A stretch of DNA of 64,000 nt. Origin: an uncultured Candidatus Saccharibacteria bacterium. GTDB lineage: Bacteria > Patescibacteriota > Minisyncoccia > Phycocordibacterales > Zambryskibacteraceae. The notes beneath the pieces are model-generated. The model was not told where the DNA came from and ran no database searches. It worked only from the letters and a program-made list of their open reading frames with translations. Below, in pieces: positions 1,394 to 64,000 of the stretch. A program made the position numbers and the translations under genes. The stretch lies in assembly GCA_964355645.1 (NCBI GenBank), contig CAYHDI010000002.1, positions 92,522-156,521 on the forward strand. Direction: 5' to 3'. The stretch's first letter is position 1. Each line of letters begins with the position of its first letter.

Positions 1394-4159
1394 GTGGCGA
1401 GGGTTTTTGCGTGTTATAATTTTCGTATGCCAAACGAGACTCTTTCCTTTAAAAACTCAGCTGAAGAATTGGAGCATCTGCGTTCCAAAGTTTTAGAGCA
1501 AGAACGGCGTTTAGAAAAATTTGAAATTAAAAAGGATAGGAATGAGGTCATTCGTGATACATTTCGAGATTATAAAGCCAATCAGGTTTTAAATTTAACC
1601 CAGGTAGAAAACAACGAAGCAAGGTTAAACGCTGAGGAAATTTTGAAAAAGGAAGCCGATAGACAACTTCAGGAAATGATGGGTATTACGGAGAAGAAAG
1701 GTATCCTACAGGCACTCATTACAGTAGAAAAGATGAATGGCTGGAAGCTCGAAGACGATTTTCATGATTATTTGGTGAATTTAGTCAGTGAAGGTCTAGC
1801 CCCAAAGGGGGTAGAAGAGAAAGGTCCCCTCTATCGGGCGCTCAAGATGACTTTGTTTGAAGTGGTTTTACCAGACACAGCCAATACTGATGAGAACAAA
1901 AAAAATCTTGTGACGCTTATCTCAAGCATGGAGCAGTTTTATGCTGGTATGCTTTCGGTGTCAGAAGAAAAAACCATGGGGAAAAATTATTTTGTTTTGG
2001 AAATCGCTAATAGTCATGGAAGCGAAGAATTTATTTTTTATGTATCTGTGCCGAATGAGAAGAAGATGCTCTTTGAGAAACATTTGCTCAGCGTTTTCCC
2101 CACAGCTCGATTGGTCGAAAGGAAAAGGGACTACAATATTTTCTCCGAAGGTAGCATCGCCTTGGCCTCTGTGGCTCGACTTTCATCTCCATCAGCCATG
2201 CCTCTGAAAACTTATGAATTGTTTGATTATGATCCACTAAATACTATTTTGAATAGTTTTTCGAAGATTCCGCGTGATGGTTCTGGGGCGGCCATACAGA
2301 TTATCTTTAATCCACAAGGCGATTTATATACCAAGAAATACCAGTTTGCTCTTAAACAAATAGAGAAGGGAGAGAAAACTTCTGAGGCCATTGCCGAACG
2401 TTCGGGTTTGGCTGAAGTCTCTCATGCTTTCGGAGAGTTTTTCACTTCGACCAAAAAGAAAGATGAGACAAAGCCAATCCAAATTGATTCATTGGCCATA
2501 GAGAAAATAAAGACCAAACTTCTTAGCCCCACAGTCTCAACAAATATTCGCGTGGCTGTTTCCGGTCGAACTCCACAGGAGGCCGAACAAATTCTCGCTG
2601 ATATTGAGTCGGGTTTTAATCAATTCGAACAGCCAGGAGTAAACAAGTTTGTTTTCAAAAGAGTTAAGCAGAATGCTGCTCCAAATTTCTTTAGGAATTT
2701 TTCTTTTAGACTCTTCGCCTTCGATCAAGTGATACCTTTGAATCTCAAAGAATTGACCTCAATCTTTCATTTTCATACTGGAGCGCTCTCTGGACGAAGT
2801 GAACTCAAACAAACCAAGGCTGTTGGCTCAGGCGCGCCTCTCGGCCTTCCTTCATCCGGCACTCTTCTTGGTTTGAATCGATTTAGAAACATTGAGACGA
2901 AGGTTTATCTTGCTCCTGAAGATCGTTTGAGACATTTCTACACTATTGGTCAGACAGGAACAGGTAAGTCCACCCTTTTGAAAAACATGATTATTCAAGA
3001 TATTCAAGCCGGCGAAGGTGTGTGTATGATTGATCCACACGGAGTAGACATCACCGATGTGCTCGCGAATATTCCGAAAGAACGATGGGACGATGTGATT
3101 TATTTTGATCCGGCTTCAACGGATAGGCCGATGGCTTTAAACATGCTCGAATATAATTCTAAATATCCAGAGCAGAAAACTTTCGTCGTGAATGAATTGT
3201 TTAATATTTTCCAAAAGCTATACGGCAAGGTGCCCGAATCAATGGGGCCAATGTTTGAACAATATTTTAGAAATGCCGCCATGCTCGTGATTGAAGACCC
3301 CGAATCCGGTTCTACCCTGCTTGATGTCTCACGAGTTCTCTCGAACAAAGAATATCGAACGCTCAAACTTTCAAAATGCCAGAACCCAATCATTGTTCAA
3401 TTTTGGAAGGAGGTAGCCGAGAAAGCTGGTGGGGAAACTTCACTCGCCAACATTGTGCCTTACATCACTTCCAAGTTCGATGTCTTCCTCGCGAACGACA
3501 TTATGCGTCCGATTATTGCCCAAGAGAAATCGTCTTTTGATTTTAGGGAAATAATGGATAAGAAAAAAATCCTTCTTGTTAATCTCTCGAAAGGAAGGCT
3601 GGGAGATATTAATGCGAACCTAATCGGACTTATCCTGGTGGGCAAAATTCTGATGGCTGCACTTTCTAGGACGGATTCAATGGGTATGCCTATGCCCCCG
3701 TTTTATTTGTATATTGATGAATTTCAAAATATCACGACGAATTCTATTGCCACTATTCTTTCGGAAGCCCGCAAATACAAGCTTTCACTCAATATTGCGC
3801 ATCAATACATCGCTCAACTTGAGGAAAATATTAAAAACGCTGTGTTTGGAAACGTCGGTACCTTGGCTACATTTCGAGTGGGTACAGATGATGCAGAGTA
3901 TTTGGAAAAACAATACGCGCCGGTTTTCACTGCGAGTGACATTGTAAATATTGATAACCGTAATGCTTATCTCAAGATGCTTGTGGATGGTAGACCGGTT
4001 AAACCGTTTAATCTTGAAACCCTAGCTCCGCCGGTAGGGGATTCGGCCCAAATAAACATGCTCAAAGAAACATCGTTTGAAAAATATGGAGGCAACAAAA
4101 TGGAAATAGAAGCCAAAATTCTCTTAAAGTATAATCCGTCTGTTCAAGTAGGAAAATAA
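1394..4159 (+). CDS. Large P-loop NTPase of the FtsK/HerA/TraG(VirD4)-like superfamily, no N-terminal TM. Probable start at M12, near 1427
   Basis: Walker A IGQTGTGKSTLLKNMI and Walker B YLYIDEFQNITT sit in the C-terminal half. A coiled-coil N-terminal region of about 450 aa is of unknown function. Confidence 0.55.
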   Translation: MARVFACYNFRMPNETLSFKNSAEELEHLRSKVLEQERRLEKFEIKKDRNEVIRDTFRDYKANQVLNLTQVENNEARLNAEEILKKEADRQLQEMMGITEKKGILQALITVEKMNGWKLEDDFHDYLVNLVSEGLAPKGVEEKGPLYRALKMTLFEVVLPDTANTDENKKNLVTLISSMEQFYAGMLSVSEEKTMGKNYFVLEIANSHGSEEFIFYVSVPNEKKMLFEKHLLSVFPTARLVERKRDYNIFSEGSIALASVARLSSPSAMPLKTYELFDYDPLNTILNSFSKIPRDGSGAAIQIIFNPQGDLYTKKYQFALKQIEKGEKTSEAIAERSGLAEVSHAFGEFFTSTKKKDETKPIQIDSLAIEKIKTKLLSPTVSTNIRVAVSGRTPQEAEQILADIESGFNQFEQPGVNKFVFKRVKQNAAPNFFRNFSFRLFAFDQVIPLNLKELTSIFHFHTGALSGRSELKQTKAVGSGAPLGLPSSGTLLGLNRFRNIETKVYLAPEDRLRHFYTIGQTGTGKSTLLKNMIIQDIQAGEGVCMIDPHGVDITDVLANIPKERWDDVIYFDPASTDRPMALNMLEYNSKYPEQKTFVVNELFNIFQKLYGKVPESMGPMFEQYFRNAAMLVIEDPESGSTLLDVSRVLSNKEYRTLKLSKCQNPIIVQFWKEVAEKAGGETSLANIVPYITSKFDVFLANDIMRPIIAQEKSSFDFREIMDKKKILLVNLSKGRLGDINANLIGLILVGKILMAALSRTDSMGMPMPPFYLYIDEFQNITTNSIATILSEARKYKLSLNIAHQYIAQLEENIKNAVFGNVGTLATFRVGTDDAEYLEKQYAPVFTASDIVNIDNRNAYLKMLVDGRPVKPFNLETLAPPVGDSAQINMLKETSFEKYGGNKMEIEAKILLKYNPSVQVGK

Positions 4160-4169
4160 ACAAATGAAA

Positions 4170-4192
4170 GGGGCGGACTATGTGTCCGCCCC
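4170..4192. terminator. GC-rich hairpin, probable bidirectional terminator
   Basis: ggggcggac-tatgt-gtccgcccc lies between convergent genes. A T-rich tract follows on the minus strand. Confidence 0.45.
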
Positions 4193-4216
4193 ATTGACCG
4201 TGTTGGTGGTCAGCCA

Positions 4217-4573
4217 TCATCCTTCGAGCATCATGTCATGCATCTCGTCGCGCCTTGCTTCGACTCCGGCGCCAGCCGCGAGATCACGTCCCGAGAGCTT
4301 GGGTTCGTCTCGATGAGGACGAAGAACCAAAACACCGATGACCTTTCGGTTCTCAAACGACCTCTTGCTTTCCTCGGACCTCAGTGAGGAGACCTGATCG
4401 ACGATGTCAGCAACTTCATGCTCGTCTGATGTCACCCCTCGGACGATGCGCCGCAGAATCACGAACACATCAGTATTGGGGCTCTCTCCCATCTTGTCCT
4501 TCCAAGTTCTGAGTAGATCCGAGGCCTTCTCTTTGCTGAGTTGCATCCTGCCCTCCTTAGGGTTCGGTCGCAC
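4217..4573 (-). CDS. Hypothetical protein, GC-rich orphan ORF (about 55% GC)
   Basis: Long ORF in a compositionally foreign block spanning 4200-4600. No recognisable domain. Confidence 0.4.
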   Translation of the reverse strand: MRPNPKEGRMQLSKEKASDLLRTWKDKMGESPNTDVFVILRRIVRGVTSDEHEVADIVDQVSSLRSEESKRSFENRKVIGVLVLRPHRDEPKLSGRDLAAGAGVEARRDEMHDMMLEG

Positions 4574-4678
4574 TCACACATTGCCTAACATAAAGACTAG
4601 CACATCTGAATCAAAAAGTCAAGCACGAAATTGCAACTGGGGATAACTCTCCTTCGCTAAAGCTTCGGAAGGGCAGGC

Positions 4679-5137
4679 TTAAAAGAAGGAATCTATGGCC
4701 TTTTTTACCAGCATTCCGTCGGCTCTGCCTTTAAGTTCTTTCATGACAAAACCGAGAAATCGGTTTTTGTCACCCCGCGTAGCCTCTGGCGTAGTGGGGT
4801 CAGCAAACTTATTTTTCACATATTCAATTATTTCTTGTTCACTCATCTGAGCTGGTAAATATTTCTCTAAGATTAATAGTTCGGCTTTTTCTGCGAGAGC
4901 CAAATCTGTTCGGTTTCCTTTCTCAAATTGCTCAATCGAGTCTTTTCTTTGTTTAACTTGTCGGCTTATCACATTCAGTACGTCTTCGTCCAAAAGTTCT
5001 TCATCGGGTTTTCTACGCTTGGCTACTAGTTCGTTGGTGAAAGCCGAGACAAGCCCGCGCACCACTCCGAGTCGCACCGTATCCTTGGCCAGCATGGCCT
5101 CCTTTATTTCTCCTTTGATTTGTTGATGTAATGACAT
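4679..5137 (-). CDS. yqeY: GatB/YqeY domain protein
   Basis: Full-length similarity to the YqeY family: ...GDKNRFLGFVMKELKGRAD... Confidence 0.75.
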   Translation of the reverse strand: MSLHQQIKGEIKEAMLAKDTVRLGVVRGLVSAFTNELVAKRRKPDEELLDEDVLNVISRQVKQRKDSIEQFEKGNRTDLALAEKAELLILEKYLPAQMSEQEIIEYVKNKFADPTTPEATRGDKNRFLGFVMKELKGRADGMLVKKAIDSFF

Positions 5138-5153
5138 GTTATAATCCTATCAT

Positions 5154-6209
5154 ATGTCAGCGACCCTCATCACTCTTTTTGTCCTCATTGCTCTAGTGTT
5201 ATTTTTGATTTGGAAAACGAGTCAAAAGCCAGAAAAGGAAGAGGGGAAGGGGCTCGAATTGATTCTCCAACAGGTCAACGAACTTTCTCGGACGATGGAC
5301 AGCAAGATGAATGAGACGAACAAAATGATGCACGAATCAGTGCGCTCTCAATTTGGTGAATCACAGAAATTGATTAAAGATATCACTCAAGAACTTTCGA
5401 TGGTCAAGGAGACGGGGCGCAGAGTTGAAGGATTCGCCGATCAACTTCAATCTCTTCAGGATATTTTAAAAAATCCGAAGCAAAGGGGGATTCTCGGAGA
5501 ATATTATCTGGAAACACTTTTGAAAAACACCATGCCTCCGGGGAGCTTCGCGATGCAGTATCAGCTCGGTGCTGATGGAGATGGCAACAAACTTATCCCA
5601 GATGCAGTGGTGTTCGTGAAGGAGAAAATAATTCCTATTGATTCTAAATTCTCACTTGAGAATTATAACCGTCTAGTAGAAGAAAAAGATCCTGTTCAGA
5701 AGGACAAATTGGAAAAAATGTTTGTTAGTGATTTGAAAAATAGAATTAGTGAGACCTCTAAATATATTCAGCCGAGTTTGGGTACGATGGACTTTGCCTT
5801 TATGTTTATTCCTCACGAGGCTATTTATTATGATTTGATTGTGAACAAAATCGGCGCTCTCCAAGAAGATACAGAGAGTCTGATTCAACGAGCCGCTTCT
5901 AAATATAAAGTAATTATTGTCTCACCGACTTCATTCCTCGCGTACCTTCAAACCGTCCTTCAGGCTTTGAATGCCATGCAAATAGAAGAGAAAGCCCAAG
6001 ACATTATCAAGCGTGTGGGCGAGCTCGGGAAGCACCTCAAATCCTATGAAGATTATTATTCCAAGCTTGGAAATTCTCTTGGTACAGTGGTGAATCATTA
6101 CAATGCTGGAGGCAAGGAATTAAGCAAGGTAGATAAGGATGTTTTGCGAATTACGGGCAAAGAAGCCGGTCTTGACCCGTTGACTTTGGAGCGTCCTTCT
6201 GTAGAATAG
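5154..6209 (+). CDS. rmuC: DNA recombination protein RmuC
   Basis: N-terminal TM helix, coiled coil, and C-terminal motifs DFAFMFIPHEAIYYDL and VIIVSPTSFLAYLQTV. Confidence 0.8.
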   Translation: MSATLITLFVLIALVLFLIWKTSQKPEKEEGKGLELILQQVNELSRTMDSKMNETNKMMHESVRSQFGESQKLIKDITQELSMVKETGRRVEGFADQLQSLQDILKNPKQRGILGEYYLETLLKNTMPPGSFAMQYQLGADGDGNKLIPDAVVFVKEKIIPIDSKFSLENYNRLVEEKDPVQKDKLEKMFVSDLKNRISETSKYIQPSLGTMDFAFMFIPHEAIYYDLIVNKIGALQEDTESLIQRAASKYKVIIVSPTSFLAYLQTVLQALNAMQIEEKAQDIIKRVGELGKHLKSYEDYYSKLGNSLGTVVNHYNAGGKELSKVDKDVLRITGKEAGLDPLTLERPSVE

Positions 6210-58233: not shown

Positions 58234-58437
58234 TTAATTGAGCATCCAAGCCGGTGGATTGAGCGCCGGCTTGACCAGCATCGGGTACCAATCTTTCACC
58301 GAACCGATCGTAAAATAGCTTCCCAATCCTCCTGCCAACTGCGGAATAATAAGCGAGATGATAAGTTTGAATACCTGTCCTGAGCGTAGTCGAAGGGTGT
58401 TGACTCGTACTGAGCTTGTCGAAGTGTTGATTTTCAT
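58234..58437 (-). pseudogene. N-terminal fragment of a TspO/MBR family protein (truncated), in a GC-rich patch
   Basis: LAGGLGSYFTIGSVKDWYPMLVKPALNPPAWM matches the TspO N-terminal motif (GSLFT...WY..L.KP.f.PP.W). It ends after about 65 aa at the ATPase start. Confidence 0.45.
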
Positions 58438-58440
58438 AAG

Positions 58441-59289
58441 TTATTTTGCAAAAGCGTCAGAAAAAATCATGACCTCTCTGCCTTTTCGTGATTCGTAAGC
58501 GTTATAATTCAAAGTAAAATTAACAATTCTACGGTCCAGATACAACGTTTTAATTTCCTTTTTATTATCATATGTAAGTAGCCAAAATGCATCGGGATTT
58601 TGGTTAAGTTTTTTTGCCAGAGCTTCGTGATCTTCTCTTTTATAATGGTTCAGATATAGCATCGAACCTTTTTCAAAATAAGGTGGGTCAAGATATATAA
58701 ATGTGTTTTTTTTATTCAAATATTCACCGATCAACTGAAGCCCGTCCTTCTTAAAAACCGATATCTTATCTTTATTGAGAACTATCTTCCGGATTCGTTC
58801 TATTAGGGTATCTTTGGTAAACCGGGCATCGATTTTATATTTACCATTTTGTTTTAGTCCACCGATAGGTCCACCGTCCAAGATGCCAGACGTATTAGTT
58901 CTATTAAGGAAAAAGGTTGCAAAACCGAGGTCAAACTGACTAGCTTTCTGATCGCTGTAAATCGCTTTTTGTCTTTTCCATTCACTAATTGTTACGGGGG
59001 TGGATTTTATTTTTTTTATGAACTTTGCAGAATGAAATATGGCTGATTTCCAGAAAGCATATATGGCTCTGTCCAGATCATTGATTACGATGCGATTAAC
59101 TTTCCCCGACAGCAATAAGGCCAGTGCCGCACCGGCACCACCAGCGAATGGTTCAACATAAGTAATATTTTCGAGCTCGTTGTCTTTCATTACACTATCG
59201 AAAAAAGGGAATAAAAAAGTTTTTCCTCCGGGATATCTTAAAGGACTACAGTGGAGTTTTTGATTTCTTTTTTGGGGTATTTTTTTCAT
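58441..59289 (-). CDS. D12-class (Dam-like) N6-adenine DNA methyltransferase
   Basis: RYPGGK, EPFAGGAGA (motif I) and DPPYFEKG (motif IV). Confidence 0.8.
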   Translation of the reverse strand: MKKIPQKRNQKLHCSPLRYPGGKTFLFPFFDSVMKDNELENITYVEPFAGGAGAALALLLSGKVNRIVINDLDRAIYAFWKSAIFHSAKFIKKIKSTPVTISEWKRQKAIYSDQKASQFDLGFATFFLNRTNTSGILDGGPIGGLKQNGKYKIDARFTKDTLIERIRKIVLNKDKISVFKKDGLQLIGEYLNKKNTFIYLDPPYFEKGSMLYLNHYKREDHEALAKKLNQNPDAFWLLTYDNKKEIKTLYLDRRIVNFTLNYNAYESRKGREVMIFSDAFAK

Positions 59290-59295
59290 ATGAAA

Positions 59296-59868
59296 TTATG
59301 ATTTTTTGCCAAAGTAAAAATCTAAAATATCAGCGACAATAAAGGAATCCTTCAATATGTCAGCTCGCTTGCAGATGATGTTGCCGTGGGCATATTTATC
59401 CAAAATGACCCCGAGGTTTCGCTGGTCTGAAAGCCACTCATTGGTAAGTGAAACATCGTTTTTTTGATGCTGTTTGAGCTCTTTCTTTGCTTCTTTAAGA
59501 AACAGCTCGCAAACTTGATCCTTCTTAGCCTTCTTTCCATCATTTTGATTTTCGTAATGCACACGAGCGGCAACTTCTACTAAAAGACGTAGTGCCATAC
59601 CTAGGAATGGCAATATTGCGTCATTGCCCTGATTCCTTTTATCAATATCTACAAGAGCCCGATACAAGTCATTTACCTTGCCTGAATTTAAGGCGATAGT
59701 TCTTCCAAAAAGATCGTTTGCAGATTTGGTAACCGGTGTTTTTCGTATTCGAAAATTATAATTTGTCTCTATACTGGCTTTTCCAAAAAGATCACTCTGT
59801 TTATTGCTTTCAGCCTCTTTTATTTCTTGTTTTACTCGATCATAGTCCTTATCCGAAATATTTTTCAA
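59296..59868 (-). CDS. Hypothetical protein (190 aa) inside the R-M island
   Basis: ORF tightly packed between the methyltransferase and the ParB-like gene. Confidence 0.4.
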   Translation of the reverse strand: MKNISDKDYDRVKQEIKEAESNKQSDLFGKASIETNYNFRIRKTPVTKSANDLFGRTIALNSGKVNDLYRALVDIDKRNQGNDAILPFLGMALRLLVEVAARVHYENQNDGKKAKKDQVCELFLKEAKKELKQHQKNDVSLTNEWLSDQRNLGVILDKYAHGNIICKRADILKDSFIVADILDFYFGKKS

Positions 59869-59874
59869 ATAGTC

Positions 59875-60663
59875 CTATATCTCCTTGTTATTTAAACGAG
59901 AAAACAATTTACCATTGTGTTGGCCACTTTTGAGCACGTCCCAGACAATGACTTTTAGCTTTTTATCAAAATCGCCATCCTTTATTTTCAGTTTTTTATC
60001 GTCATCAAAAGAGAAACCAAAGAATTGCTGAGCTGGTGTTTGGCCAGTCAATCTCCAGAAAGTTGTCACATAACCCGGGCCAAGTACGGCCTCCTTTAGC
60101 TCGTTCGCTAATTCAAGATTATTAACGAATTTTGTAATACCGACTCTTATCAATTCTTTTTCGCCAGCCTTACCACGTCGTTCTTTGTGGTGAGCGATCT
60201 CGTTAGAACCCCAAGATACTTCGTTGTTTTGGTTAAGATGCTTTCTTTCGATGAATCGGTAGCCCTGTTCCAAGTCTTCGGTTACTAGGCATTCCACTTC
60301 GAAATCCTCGGAAATTCCAATCTTTGATTTAATTTTTGCGAACTTAGTTTCCTGTGCACCTGCTAATTTGGGGTTAGCTAACAATTTGTATGCGGCGATA
60401 CGCCTATTACCCTCAAGAACCACATTGCGATCATTGGAATGCCAAACTACAATTTTTTCCAACTGAGGAAGATCGACATCCTTTTCCATCTCACTAGCTA
60501 ATTTCAGAACTTGAAATTTACCCGTTAGGAAATATTTCAACAGGTCATCTTCTAGCAGACCGAAATACTGATCGGAAAAACGAGCATTTTCATCCCAGAG
60601 CGAAAAGTCCTTAATAGGGATATCTTTCTTTTTCCATTTTGAATTTTCGATAATCATATTCAT
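59875..60663 (-). CDS. ParB/Srx-like N-terminal domain protein (arginine-patch GNRRIAA)
   Basis: VVLEGNRRIAAYKLL matches the ParB GERRxRAA box. Confidence 0.55.
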   Translation of the reverse strand: MNMIIENSKWKKKDIPIKDFSLWDENARFSDQYFGLLEDDLLKYFLTGKFQVLKLASEMEKDVDLPQLEKIVVWHSNDRNVVLEGNRRIAAYKLLANPKLAGAQETKFAKIKSKIGISEDFEVECLVTEDLEQGYRFIERKHLNQNNEVSWGSNEIAHHKERRGKAGEKELIRVGITKFVNNLELANELKEAVLGPGYVTTFWRLTGQTPAQQFFGFSFDDDKKLKIKDGDFDKKLKVIVWDVLKSGQHNGKLFSRLNNKEI

Positions 60664-60680: not shown

Positions 60681-62216
60681 TTACGTTACACCATAAAGAA
60701 CATGATTGTTCTCGATATGACTAAGAAATTCCTCAATCGTCTTTGGCAAAATTGAAAGATTCTCTTTCTCCTTAACGTAATTAATCTGCATGACCGAATC
60801 TTTGAATATGCTTGGGGCTACGAAGTAGCACACGGAATCCTTTGTGCCTTTTTGAAATTCTCCTAAATGTCTTGAGATCGGCCAGACTTCCATCATGGTT
60901 TGCATACGTCCTTCAGACATAGTTACTTCAACCAATATACCCTTAACATCTTCGAAGCATTCGATATCACCTTTGTCTCCAACACCTCCAGCTGTTGAGG
61001 TCGGAAGTCCTTCGTCATCATAAGGATAATTGGGGATCACCTTAACATTTGGAAATTTTGATTTGATAGCCAAAGACACAAGAAACTCAAGTCTGACGGG
61101 ATTTGATAAGTATTTCAAAATATCGTCTTTCGTGAGTCTTTTCTTAGCCAGATTTAGCATTTCGTCCTTAATTTTGTTCCAAGGATAAATACCAATCCAC
61201 TTGGCCAAAAATGCATCTCTTTCGCCAACACTTACCGGTTTAGCAACAAACGAGATTAGATTTTCGTCCACTGCCGACATGTAATCAAAGTAAGATTCTT
61301 CTGCAGTGTATTTTTTGTAATCAGAATAATTTGCCAAAGCATAATCAACCTTCTTCTGCTCATTTCTGTTTATATCAACAAAGCGGCCAGCACCCCTTAA
61401 TGAGATCAACCCCGTGAGTCTCATTTTTCTAATGAATTCATCAGGGTAATCAACCATTATCGACTTCGGATTGAACTTCTTGAAATCACCCTTCATGATT
61501 TGGTTAACGCAAATATCAACGATAACTTCCCAGCTCGGGGTATAGCCATGTTCTTTTCTAATTTTCTTTATAAGCTTATATAAAGCATCTGCGTTATTGT
61601 CTTTCCAAAAGATAATCAATGGCAATTCCAGTTTAGAAATTCCGGTCCCGTTTAAATCTTTATCAGCATTTATTTTATTGATCACGCTCAGTAATAAAAT
61701 CAGTGGCGCATTTTCATTGAGTACTCGTCTGAATGGACTATTGCTTTGATATTTCACGAAAGCGTTCAGAAAGGCCTGTTGTTCAAATTCTGGGTGTTCG
61801 TTATCAACTAATTTTAATCCGATATCAGAAAATCTCACCTTTTCACCATTTTTGTAATAGACGAAGCCGAGTTCCTTGGCGATCTTAAACCAAGTATCAA
61901 ATCGGGAAGCCCAGCCCTTACTAAAACCGGCCTCTTTGTGATTCTGCGGATTGTCCTCAAGAACCTTTTTAACTTCAAAATCGGACAATGGTTCTTTTGT
62001 TTCAATCTTTTTCTTTATAACAGCACTTATCTTGGTCGGTTTATACAAGCCAACTCGAATGACTTCCCCGGAAATTTCTTCAGCCAACTGATCATCGAGA
62101 ACTTTCCCGTCATAATCCTTAAGGACTCCTAAAAACCACTTGAGTCTCTCCGGATTTCTAAGTGTGGTAGTAAACAATAGTGGTTTGTATTCTGATTCTC
62201 TTGTTTTTGTTTTCAT
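60681..62216 (-). CDS. Putative restriction endonuclease (511 aa), family undetermined, possibly type IIS-like
   Basis: No NTPase motifs. C-terminal acidic cluster GDKGDIECFEDVKG is compatible with a PD-(D/E)xK core. Flanked by Dam-like methyltransferases. Confidence 0.35.
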   Translation of the reverse strand: MKTKTRESEYKPLLFTTTLRNPERLKWFLGVLKDYDGKVLDDQLAEEISGEVIRVGLYKPTKISAVIKKKIETKEPLSDFEVKKVLEDNPQNHKEAGFSKGWASRFDTWFKIAKELGFVYYKNGEKVRFSDIGLKLVDNEHPEFEQQAFLNAFVKYQSNSPFRRVLNENAPLILLLSVINKINADKDLNGTGISKLELPLIIFWKDNNADALYKLIKKIRKEHGYTPSWEVIVDICVNQIMKGDFKKFNPKSIMVDYPDEFIRKMRLTGLISLRGAGRFVDINRNEQKKVDYALANYSDYKKYTAEESYFDYMSAVDENLISFVAKPVSVGERDAFLAKWIGIYPWNKIKDEMLNLAKKRLTKDDILKYLSNPVRLEFLVSLAIKSKFPNVKVIPNYPYDDEGLPTSTAGGVGDKGDIECFEDVKGILVEVTMSEGRMQTMMEVWPISRHLGEFQKGTKDSVCYFVAPSIFKDSVMQINYVKEKENLSILPKTIEEFLSHIENNHVLYGVT

Positions 62217-62220
62217 ATAT

Positions 62221-63126
62221 TTAGTAATTGGTAATTAACGCTTCCTTAATCTGTTTCTTACCATTATTGTGATAACTGATGTAATTGCTCTCTATCTTGT
62301 GGGTCTTATATTTTTTCATCCAGTCAATCAACAAATCATTTTTACTACCGTTATAGTGCGTCACATTCGATAGAGCAAACTTAACACCTTTTTTATCCAG
62401 ATCATCGATTGTTTTTAATAAGTCAGCTTCAGCTTTTTGATCCCACCGTTTGTTGTATTCGCTGGCTGTTATGAGGTATGGCGGGTCTAGATAAACAAAG
62501 TCGTTTTTCCCATATTTTCGGCCAACAAAATAACTTCTAAAATCTTTCGAGCTTAAAGTTATTTTCTTATTTCGAGTAAAGTCAAAGTAGCCATTCAGAG
62601 CATTAACAACATTTTTATTAAAATCAACATTGCCAACTGGTAGATTGAATTTACCGCCTCCATTGAATCTCAACATTCTATTGAATCCGTAGATAAGCAA
62701 GATATACAGAATTAGAGGATCGTTTTTTATATTCTTATTTACGCAAACTCTTAATTTCTCATAACCCTCTTTGTTAAATCTGGCAAAATAGGTTTTCTTC
62801 CATTCCTTTTTTAAAGAGACTGGGATTACGTCTTCCTTGTATGATCGTGATAGACGATACTTTTTTATTATCTTTTCTACATTCTTAAAAAATAAATCTG
62901 GGTTATTGGAACTACCAACTAAAAATCGATGTATATTAATAAGATTTTTGTCATTATCATTCAGGAAATATTTGTCAGCCTGAATATTCAAAAAGACCGT
63001 TCCACCGCCGACAAACGGTTCATAGAAGTTGCTTACTTCCTTTGGAAATAAACCAACCAACTGCTTCATTAACTTGTATTTATCCCCGACGTAAAACAGG
63101 GGGGATCTTTTGATTTTATTTTGCAT
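62221..63126 (-). CDS. D12-class N6-adenine DNA methyltransferase
   Basis: FYVGDKYKL, EPFVGGGTVF and DPPY. Confidence 0.8.
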   Translation of the reverse strand: MQNKIKRSPLFYVGDKYKLMKQLVGLFPKEVSNFYEPFVGGGTVFLNIQADKYFLNDNDKNLINIHRFLVGSSNNPDLFFKNVEKIIKKYRLSRSYKEDVIPVSLKKEWKKTYFARFNKEGYEKLRVCVNKNIKNDPLILYILLIYGFNRMLRFNGGGKFNLPVGNVDFNKNVVNALNGYFDFTRNKKITLSSKDFRSYFVGRKYGKNDFVYLDPPYLITASEYNKRWDQKAEADLLKTIDDLDKKGVKFALSNVTHYNGSKNDLLIDWMKKYKTHKIESNYISYHNNGKKQIKEALITNY

Positions 63127-64000
63127 AATCGGTGGTGGTCACAAACAAGTATTCCTTATGATTCTTGAAATCGGTATTACCGGCATTAAAATGCCTGTAA
63201 TCTTTTTCAAAAATCTTTGTTTTACCCTTTGATGTTAAAATATCTTTTATTTCCTGTAGTGTGATCTTATTTTTTGAAGAATTGCTTTTTGAATCGTAAG
63301 TATTGTTGTATGACAGCACTAGATATTTGGCATCTAAATCCCGGACCAACTCGGCAAGCCTATCTCTTGCCCGTACCTTACAGTAATCGCTCATATTTTC
63401 TTCTTCAGGTTTTAGTGCTGTTCCGTAGAGTTTTGGTTTATCCCACTTCGTAAGAGTCTCAAGTACATGATAAAAACGGCTGTATTGTCTTGAATTATAT
63501 GGAGGATCAATATAGACAACATCCGCTTTGATCTTTTTTGCCAAAAGATTTGTGTCTTCTCTAAAGATAGCCACTTTCTTTACTTCGATTGGATCAATTG
63601 GCCTCATAAAAAACCCGTCTTCAACATGATCCTTTTTGAAATAGGCATCATAGTGACCAACCGTATTTGCAACCTTATCAATTGAATACAACAAAGAAGC
63701 AACAAGAATATAATATTCCTTATCAGTTAAATTGCCTTTATTTTCCTCTATATTTTCTCTGATGAATCCAATTATCTTTGAGGAATTATGACTGAAATAC
63801 TTTCCACCAAAGTTTTCAGAGAAATAATTCTTTTCTAAGTCTTCGCCGTTGATGTTGTTGTAATTTTTGATTATATCGTCAAGCTTTTGTTTGTCCCACT
63901 TACCGTTACCGAAAAAAGCTTGATAGATTGCGTAATTGGAATGTAAAAAATCATTCAATATGATTTCATCAAAATGCCTAGCCGCGACAGCCGAAACCAC
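63116..64000 (-). CDS. D12-class N6-adenine DNA methyltransferase. The N-terminus lies beyond the window end
   Basis: VVYIDPPYNSRQY. The ORF is open at 64000. Confidence 0.7.
   Translation of the reverse strand: MVSAVAARHFDEIILNDFLHSNYAIYQAFFGNGKWDKQKLDDIIKNYNNINGEDLEKNYFSENFGGKYFSHNSSKIIGFIRENIEENKGNLTDKEYYILVASLLYSIDKVANTVGHYDAYFKKDHVEDGFFMRPIDPIEVKKVAIFREDTNLLAKKIKADVVYIDPPYNSRQYSRFYHVLETLTKWDKPKLYGTALKPEEENMSDYCKVRARDRLAELVRDLDAKYLVLSYNNTYDSKSNSSKNKITLQEIKDILTSKGKTKIFEKDYRHFNAGNTDFKNHKEYLFVTTTDYAK

Follow-up and report, generated by a model that had tools for sequence, protein, structure and literature searches.

A PD-lambda-5-type anti-phage locus with an interrupted gene A beside an AlwI-type restriction-modification system

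What is a ParB-like protein doing in the middle of a row of restriction-modification (R-M) genes? The question is raised by the right end of a 64,000-nucleotide (nt) stretch of contig CAYHDI010000002.1 (the whole stretch is referred to here as the window), where tightly packed genes run in the same direction on the minus strand. The initial annotation described two open reading frames (ORFs) there, one of 262 amino acids (aa) and one of 190 aa, and took the longer for a ParB-like protein and the shorter for an unknown, both of them inside an R-M operon. Both ORFs exist exactly as it stated, at 59875-60663 and 59296-59868 on the minus strand, and they do lie between the gene for an AlwI-family endonuclease (60681-62216) and that for a D12 methyltransferase (58441-59289). 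The sequence comparisons reported here indicate that the locus is a copy of a known two-gene anti-phage system, PD-lambda-5, in which the first gene, gene A, is damaged. The finding is thus a largely ordinary one. Its value is corrective: what looked like a "ParB-like accessory nested in an R-M operon" is a known PD-lambda-5 system that adjoins a type IIS R-M system unrelated to it; one base change has hit gene A.

Two open reading frames, one gene

The features on which the argument turns are the following.

59296-60663, minus strand: gene A, PD-lambda-5_A type, with a ParB/sulfiredoxin (Srx)-like N terminus and a helical C-terminal domain; reading through its one in-frame TAG gives 455 codons
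59875-60663, minus strand: N-terminal ORF, 262 aa, stopping at the TAG
59875-59877, minus strand: in-frame TAG stop, codon 263
59296-59868, minus strand: C-terminal ORF, 190 aa from a TTG that is the third codon past the TAG
58441-59289, minus strand: gene B, PD-lambda-5_B-type D12-class N6-adenine DNA methyltransferase by PADLOC and Pfam matches, intact, 282 aa, 6 nt 3' of gene A

The 262-aa and 190-aa ORFs are in the same frame, and between them stand only a single TAG and two further codons, after which the TTG at 59868 begins the 190-aa ORF. Read across the stop, the frame at 59293-60663 translates as ...SRLNNKEI*DYLKNISDKDY..., with the asterisk marking the TAG. A search with this read-through sequence returned 269 homologues, and the 24 closest (72 to 93% identity) were all single proteins of 448 to 456 aa that aligned over 98 to 100% of the query. 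The 190-aa ORF was 83 to 88% identical to residues ~266 to 455 of intact homologues. When the 190-aa ORF was compared exhaustively by phmmer with 1.84 billion representatives, 68 proteins were found, nearly all of them 410 to 514 aa long and matched in their C-terminal part; the short members were mostly fragments at contig ends.

Because the ORFs share a frame broken by a single TAG, and because their relatives are fused, we conclude from sequence that the "ParB-like protein" and the "190-aa unknown" are two halves of one gene and not a gene pair. The 190-aa part is the C-terminal domain of the same protein and not a gene of its own. The alignment column that holds the TAG is variable among homologues (Q, S, L, H, F, E, or N). 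Gln occupies this position in the closest homologue, P0001, and CAG is one transition away from TAG; more generally, the CAG, TCG, or TTG codons of relatives would become TAG by a single base change. In a model built with AlphaFold2 (AF2), the stop is located in a helix (residues 255 to 263), ~20 residues ahead of a disordered linker.

Reality of the stop codon

An in-frame TAG could be a sequencing or assembly error, or it could be a sense codon through recoding or a suppressor tRNA. The Gln of P0001 and the single transition that separates CAG from TAG are compatible with such an explanation, and some phages recode TAG to Gln. Against it, six assemblies obtained in different runs and projects carry the identical TAG; samples from the Hainich aquifer are among their sources, and one of the contigs diverges at its 5' end. 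These six loci share the sequence ...GAGATATAGGACTATTTG... and are 99.2 to 100% identical over genes A and B, and records from several sources contain the identical 190-aa protein. The change is, moreover, a substitution and not a homopolymer indel. Within the window, 11 other long ORFs terminate at TAG, each of the three stop codons is in use, and the three tRNAs found are all ordinary, with no suppressor among them. Taken on both sides, an artifact or a recoded codon is very improbable. Assembly error was rejected on the evidence of the six assemblies, and an alternative genetic code or suppressor on that of ordinary TAG use and the three tRNAs. Since six assemblies carry the TAG and TAG is an ordinary stop in the window, the nonsense allele is genuine and established in a natural population.

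Assignment to PD-lambda-5

PD-lambda-5 was found by functional selection in Escherichia coli ECOR7 (Vassallo 2022, Nat Microbiol; PMC9519451). It is listed in that study as "ParB/HEPN, methyltransferase," was validated against phage in E. coli with unusually broad protection, was termed "RM+Abi," and required a host without mrr for its cloning (PMC9519451). Both PADLOC and DefenseFinder include it as a family. It had been suggested that the genes considered here could be uncharacterized; by profile matches they belong to this family, which was shown to protect E. coli from phages.

The 262-aa ORF matched 25 PADLOC PD-Lambda-5_A models (best E value, 9e-26), covering the first ~245 of 440 to 500 profile positions. 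Once Gln was put in place of the stop, model PDLC04013 was matched from end to end (residues 12 to 438 against profile positions 5 to 423 of 440; 3.5e-27), and the family member P0052 (45% identity) matched PD-Lambda-5_A model PDLC03998 over its full length at 1.4e-71. The 190-aa C-terminal part alone scored below PADLOC thresholds, and we found no Pfam or NCBIfam match for either the 262-aa or the 190-aa ORF. On sequence grounds, the C-terminal domain of the window's gene A is a diverged sub-variant of PD-lambda-5_A. Gene B matched PADLOC PD-Lambda-5_B (PDLC04018) at 3e-112, ahead of the generic MTase_II model as next best (4e-88), and Pfam MethyltransfD12 at 4.6e-19.

The window thus has the gene order of PD-lambda-5, in which a D12 adenine methyltransferase comes directly after a ParB-like protein of ~450 aa whose C-terminal domain is helical, and both genes match the family's hidden Markov models (HMMs) in an island context typical of defense genes. 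It differs in three respects. Whereas gene A of PD-lambda-5 would be expected to encode one intact polypeptide of ~430 to 590 aa, that of the window is cut by the in-frame TAG after codon 262; its host is a probable bacterium of the candidate phyla radiation (CPR) and not an E. coli prophage; and its C-terminal domain is the diverged sub-variant just described.

Linkage of gene A to a methyltransferase across genomes

We collected 80 species-representative genome loci with gene A homologues, of which three were cut by contig ends and 77 were usable. Their hosts include Patescibacteria, Bacteroidota, Gammaproteobacteria, Ignavibacteria, Streptomyces, and archaea of the Pacearchaeota and Aenigmatarchaeota. 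Gene A was a single intact ORF in 72 of the 77. A homologue of the window's 282-aa methyltransferase lay downstream of gene A on the same strand at 74 loci: in 68 it directly abutted an intact gene A, in three an AAA_15-type ATPase gene stood between them, and in three it followed a disrupted gene A. One further locus had a convergent D12 methyltransferase. The initial annotation had asked whether linkage to methyltransferase or endonuclease genes is conserved; it is for the methyltransferase, whereas an AlwI-type endonuclease was found at none of 85 loci.

These data make the PD-lambda-5 family very widespread, spanning CPR bacteria, Bacteroidota, Gammaproteobacteria, Streptomyces, and DPANN archaea, with a near-invariant methyltransferase linkage. 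That linkage supports an R-M-like self/non-self logic for PD-lambda-5.

The three-gene variant (L024, L039:7359-8936, and L068) places a gene for an AAA_15/AAA_21 (OLD/AbiEii-like) ATPase of ~515 to 525 aa between gene A and the D12 methyltransferase; its hosts are a relative of a Bathymodiolus symbiont, a gammaproteobacterial metagenome-assembled genome, and Olleya. A temperate Pseudomonas phage (OQ658368.1, positions 2992-5263) also carries a copy of gene A, annotated only as a hypothetical protein. Beside it we detected a convergent ORF for a 291-aa D12 methyltransferase (4388-5263, minus strand) that has no annotation in the record.

Two systems side by side

Upstream of gene A, the row continues with three genes.

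60681-62216, minus strand: AlwI-family type IIS restriction endonuclease, 511 aa (Pfam RE_AlwI, 6.1e-43; PADLOC REase_II, 2.6e-128)
62221-63126, minus strand: second of two D12 methyltransferases (PADLOC MTase_II)
63116-64000, minus strand: first of two D12 methyltransferases, continuing beyond the window end (PADLOC MTase_II)

Together these form a complete AlwI-family type IIS R-M system (60681-64000, minus strand) whose methyltransferase is encoded as two D12 genes, whereas in related systems it is one fused protein of ~720 aa. The two genes overlap by 11 nt, gave MTase_II E values of 3e-104 and 3.5e-109, and align to the C and N halves of model PDLC03292, which describes a fused methyltransferase of 722 aa. 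Two methyltransferase halves are expected for an asymmetric type IIS site.

In one option of the initial annotation, the ParB-like protein and its partner would be two distinct genes acting as accessories within this operon, which is of AlwI type. The six ORFs of the row are indeed co-directional, with gaps of 3 to 17 nt, and may be co-transcribed; a scan of the row yielded no convincing promoter or terminator inside it, but was uninformative (fewer sites than in shuffled sequence). The accessory view is contradicted by the single frame with one stop and the fused relatives described above, and by the comparison with other genomes. No tblastn match to the window's AlwI endonuclease was obtained in any of 85 gene A homologue loci of other genomes or assemblies. 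Close relatives carry the same cassette in other company: at the loci of P0005 (90% identical) and P0012 (85%), a D12 methyltransferase of 284 to 289 aa begins 5 to 6 nt after gene A, and the upstream neighbor is a type I R-M system in the first and an EcoRI-type methylase with a GmrSD/HNH enzyme in the second. The AlwI system is also already complete, with two strand-specific methyltransferases and one endonuclease. We therefore regard an accessory pair within the AlwI operon as barely credible.

Because AlwI homologues are absent from the gene A homologue loci, the AlwI enzyme and the two upstream methyltransferases are best treated as a separate type IIS system. The supposed R-M operon is two systems side by side, a complete AlwI-type system and a PD-lambda-5-type A+B cassette. 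Of the two options offered initially, an accessory or a separate defense module, the second stands and the first, as an accessory to AlwI, does not.

The N-terminal ParB/sulfiredoxin-like domain

Two features define the N-terminal part of gene A.

60280-60636, minus strand: predicted ParB/sulfiredoxin-like domain, ~residues 10 to 128 (Foldseek; AF2 model of the 93%-identical P0001, predicted local distance difference test [pLDDT] of ~90)
60379-60423, minus strand: motif VVLEGNRRIAAYKLL, putative counterpart of ParB box II GERRxRAA, residues 81 to 95 of the 262-aa ORF, read from the sequence

The ParB-type motif noted initially is real and far beyond chance, lying at residues 81 to 95 of an ORF that matches PD-Lambda-5_A at the HMM score given above. 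Ten of its residues (V82, L83, E84, G85, N86, R87, R88, Y92, K93, and L94) were invariant in a 20-sequence alignment, and E84, G85, N86, R87, R88, and Y92 remained so across 77 homologues. Further invariant basic residues of the gene A protein are R136, R140, K141, H142, R162, and R163.

The model of P0001, built from a 77-sequence alignment, had a mean pLDDT of 84.7 and is laid out as a ParB-like domain (~10 to 128), a helical region, a disordered linker (283 to 323), and a helical bundle (325 to 447). Its best Foldseek matches in the PDB were nucleotide-bound N-terminal regions of Myxococcus xanthus ParB (with CDP), Bacillus subtilis ParB, Noc, and KorB (probability 0.96 to 1.00, E values of 3e-3 to 5e-2; for ParB 7bnk, E 2.8e-3 and probability 1.00). 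Sulfiredoxin 6ky4 was matched with a template modeling (TM) score of 0.60 and a probability of 0.99, and matches in the BFVD viral structure library included ParB, GmrSD N-terminal, DndB-like, and "ParB-like nuclease" proteins. In the published HHpred analysis, residues 6 to 89 of the E. coli PD-lambda-5 A protein matched ParBc at 96.4% (PMC9519451). These matches support a ParB/sulfiredoxin-type fold for the modeled N-terminal region. The EGNRR patch appears equivalent to GERR by motif position and fold match, without a residue-level superposition. By contrast, Pfam ParB_N/ParBc gave no match at E of ≤1 for the window protein or any of 77 homologues, and a full-length sequence-profile search of the PDB gave only spurious coiled-coil and pheromone-binding-protein matches. 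The description "ParB-like" therefore holds at the level of fold and not of Pfam family.

Could this be a genuine chromosome or plasmid partition ParB? The likeness to ParB N-domains and the resemblance of GNRR to GERR would suit one. All 77 family members lack the Pfam ParB match, however, and, as noted initially, no parA lies alongside, the neighbors being the AlwI endonuclease and D12 methyltransferase genes. The constant partner is a DNA methyltransferase (74 of 77 loci), and the family is a validated phage-defense system (PMC9519451). A partition role is consequently as close to excluded as any reading considered here.

The CTP-dependent clamps ParB, Noc, and KorB resemble gene A in being its best structural matches over the N-terminal domain and the next helical region, and in carrying the CTP-binding GERR box where gene A has GNRR; they differ in their parA/parS context, Pfam ParB match, and C-terminal domain. 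GmrSD/DUF262 type IV enzymes, DndB, and DpdB are also among its structural neighbors and share a ParB/Srx nucleotide-binding-type domain used in defense that reads or writes DNA modification. Unlike these, the window protein has the motif EGNRR in place of DGQQR or DGQHR, matches none of their HMMs, lacks an HNH domain, and is partnered by a simple D12 methyltransferase and not by sulfur or deazaguanine chemistry. Profile searches for DndB and DpdB, as first proposed for this protein, matched no model: a PADLOC scan of the 262-aa ORF returned PD-Lambda-5_A models and one weak PDC-M38A match. Membership in DndB or DpdB was rejected on this result and on the lack of dnd or dpd genes nearby.

Among the BFVD viral structures, the one closest to the full-length model was A0A7D7IC55 of Vibrio phage ValB1MD-2, a stand-alone protein of 252 aa (E 9.5e-7; TM score 0.56). 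The likeness is confined to the N-terminal ~260 residues, which is the part left by the truncation in the window.

The C-terminal helical domain

59311-59679, minus strand: C-terminal alpha-helical bundle with invariant Asn/Arg/His, residues 64 to 186 of the 190-aa ORF (AF2 pLDDT of 86 to 97)

Modeled alone, the 190-aa ORF gave a pLDDT of 81 and the same bundle as in the full-length model. The bundle contains an invariant N, R, H, and F. In the original description, HEPN was assigned to the A protein from an HHpred match to DUF4145 of only 35.6% (PMC9519451). We looked for this relationship in several ways. A 23-sequence alignment of the domain had no conserved Rx4-6H, its invariant R94 and H161 (190-aa numbering) being 67 residues apart. 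Pfam searches with 77 full-length homologues and 23 isolated C-terminal domains gave scattered chance matches and no HEPN or ParB family; DUF4145 matched one of the 77 members, at E 0.027. A sequence-profile search of the PDB with the C-terminal domain returned spurious matches, none significant, and Foldseek matched the 190-aa model in the PDB to generic helical bundles, again none significant, with 8xeh_D as the best HEPN match (E 4.5; probability 0.07). The published HEPN label for this domain could not be confirmed and is unsupported by these tests, which is a point against the explanation preferred below. The invariant Asn, Arg, and His of this domain, together with the conserved EGNRR patch, offer concrete targets for mutagenesis.

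Proposed working of the intact system

We postulate that gene B would methylate adenines in host DNA and so mark the host's own DNA. That the E. coli PD-lambda-5 was reported to be incompatible with Mrr implies that a B-type methyltransferase is active in vivo. Intact gene A would be one protein of ~455 aa with a ParB/Srx-fold N-domain, a helical middle, a flexible linker, and a C-terminal helical domain. Its N-domain, with the EGNRR patch and the invariant basic cluster, may serve as an NTP-binding, DNA-engaging sensor. ParB, GmrSD, DndB, and DpdB act through ParB/Srx-type domains in an NTP-dependent manner (PMC12839542), and the A protein may engage DNA in a similarly NTP-dependent way. The C-terminal helical domain, to which Vassallo et al. 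gave the HEPN label on weak grounds, would be the effector. As in R-M, the A protein would act on, or be triggered by, DNA lacking the methyl mark of B, upon which the C-terminal domain would fire, with DNA cleavage, RNA cleavage, or growth arrest as candidate outputs.

Consequences of the stop codon

The TAG at codon 263 cuts gene A in two, leaving a ParB-like fragment of 262 aa and a remainder of 190 aa. We consider it somewhat probable that gene A was recently inactivated or crippled in this way and that methyltransferase B was retained, so that the putative effector protein is disabled and the methyltransferase kept. The mutation is likely to be recent, since the 190 codons downstream carry no further lesion and no excess of amino acid change. 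R-M-like modules usually decay effector first, giving orphan methyltransferases, because loss of the methyltransferase first is lethal.

Other broken copies of gene A with gene B still present fit this pattern: in L042 the frame meets a TAA at ~residue 152, and in L062 and L064 it is broken by frameshifts close to residues 186 to 200. The resemblance to the decay of type II R-M systems lies in a methyltransferase tightly linked to a putative DNA-directed effector and, in the window as in these three loci, in a broken effector gene beside an intact methyltransferase; the difference from classical type II R-M is that gene A has no PD-(D/E)XK, HNH, or other recognized restriction-nuclease domain. 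That gene A was lost and gene B retained in four lineages argues that A is dangerous and B protective. Some of the frameshifts among disrupted copies could be assembly errors. A further locus, L073, holds a short gene A remnant without a methyltransferase.

Several points weigh against inactivation. The loss of function of the truncated gene is a prediction from sequence, and we infer the sensor and effector roles of PD-lambda-5_A themselves, no mechanistic study having been found in the searched literature that names the system. The TTG 6 nt past the TAG, with an AAGGAG upstream, could allow re-initiation, and the C-terminal 190-aa piece may well be made, as the genes of this row also appear to restart after short gaps (4 to 17 nt) without a Shine-Dalgarno sequence. 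The rate of nonsynonymous substitution (dN) between the C-terminal part in the window and the intact copy L001 was 0.063, compared with 0.078 between two intact copies, and so gave no sign of relaxed selection; synonymous divergence (dS) between the window and intact homologues was saturated (>1.8), so that dN/dS has little power and does not separate a recent pseudogene from a selected gene. Finally, two loci that are 60% identical (L093:1-722 and L094:1-721) carry a TAA in frame, no more than a few codons from the position of the window's TAG, followed by an ATG-initiated C-terminal ORF of 182 aa and then a D12 methyltransferase. Their contigs end ~140 nt upstream of the TAA, the alignment there is uncertain, and they were found by a search biased towards such a case.

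Most of these observations would also fit a split that is tolerated or even selected, with both pieces made (the second by termination-reinitiation at TTG 59868) and associating non-covalently, for example via helix 267 to 282, which remains with the C-terminal fragment, into a working PD-lambda-5_A. The stop lies near the interdomain linker, the TAG allele persists in the population across several samples and runs, and the stand-alone 252-aa look-alike of the N-terminal half in a Vibrio phage exists. Opposed to this are the 68 C-domain representatives, nearly all fused and full length, and the single intact ORF kept by 72 of 77 loci; other disruptions of gene A occur at unrelated positions (152, ~186, and ~200); the TTG encodes a Leu that is conserved in intact proteins and is therefore not a newly evolved start; and the parallel in L093 suffers from the limits already given. 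On balance we judge a working split to be unlikely, well behind the preferred reading of an inactivated gene A.

A more specific form of the idea is that the stop marks a naturally viable split of PD-lambda-5_A into two subunits, a stand-alone ParB-like sensor and an effector translated separately by termination-reinitiation, and that L093 and L094 may represent a second, independent origin of such a split at almost the same helix. We find the viable two-subunit system a little less likely still. If true, the natural split would show where PD-lambda-5_A divides into sensor and effector, and it would hint at an effector dosage tuned by restart efficiency.

Surroundings of the gene row

The gene row has a G+C content of 0.34 to 0.385, compared with a window mean of ~0.41, and the A+B module lies in a low-GC defense islet of a probable Patescibacteria (CPR) groundwater bacterium. 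Sample names and the closest relatives suggest a host of Falkowbacteria-like affinity. Between 58441 and 63126 (minus strand), no gene of the row has a recognizable Shine-Dalgarno sequence, and starts lie 3 to 17 nt past the previous stop or overlap it; the sole AAGGAG among the upstream regions is the one inside gene A, before TTG 59868. An ORF of 67 aa follows 3 nt 3' of gene B (58234-58437, minus strand), and its product on an identical contig (L087) has a weak Pfam TspO_MBR match. This ORF has the appearance of a TspO gene reduced to its N-terminal part, and it may mark the edge of the inserted defense islet.

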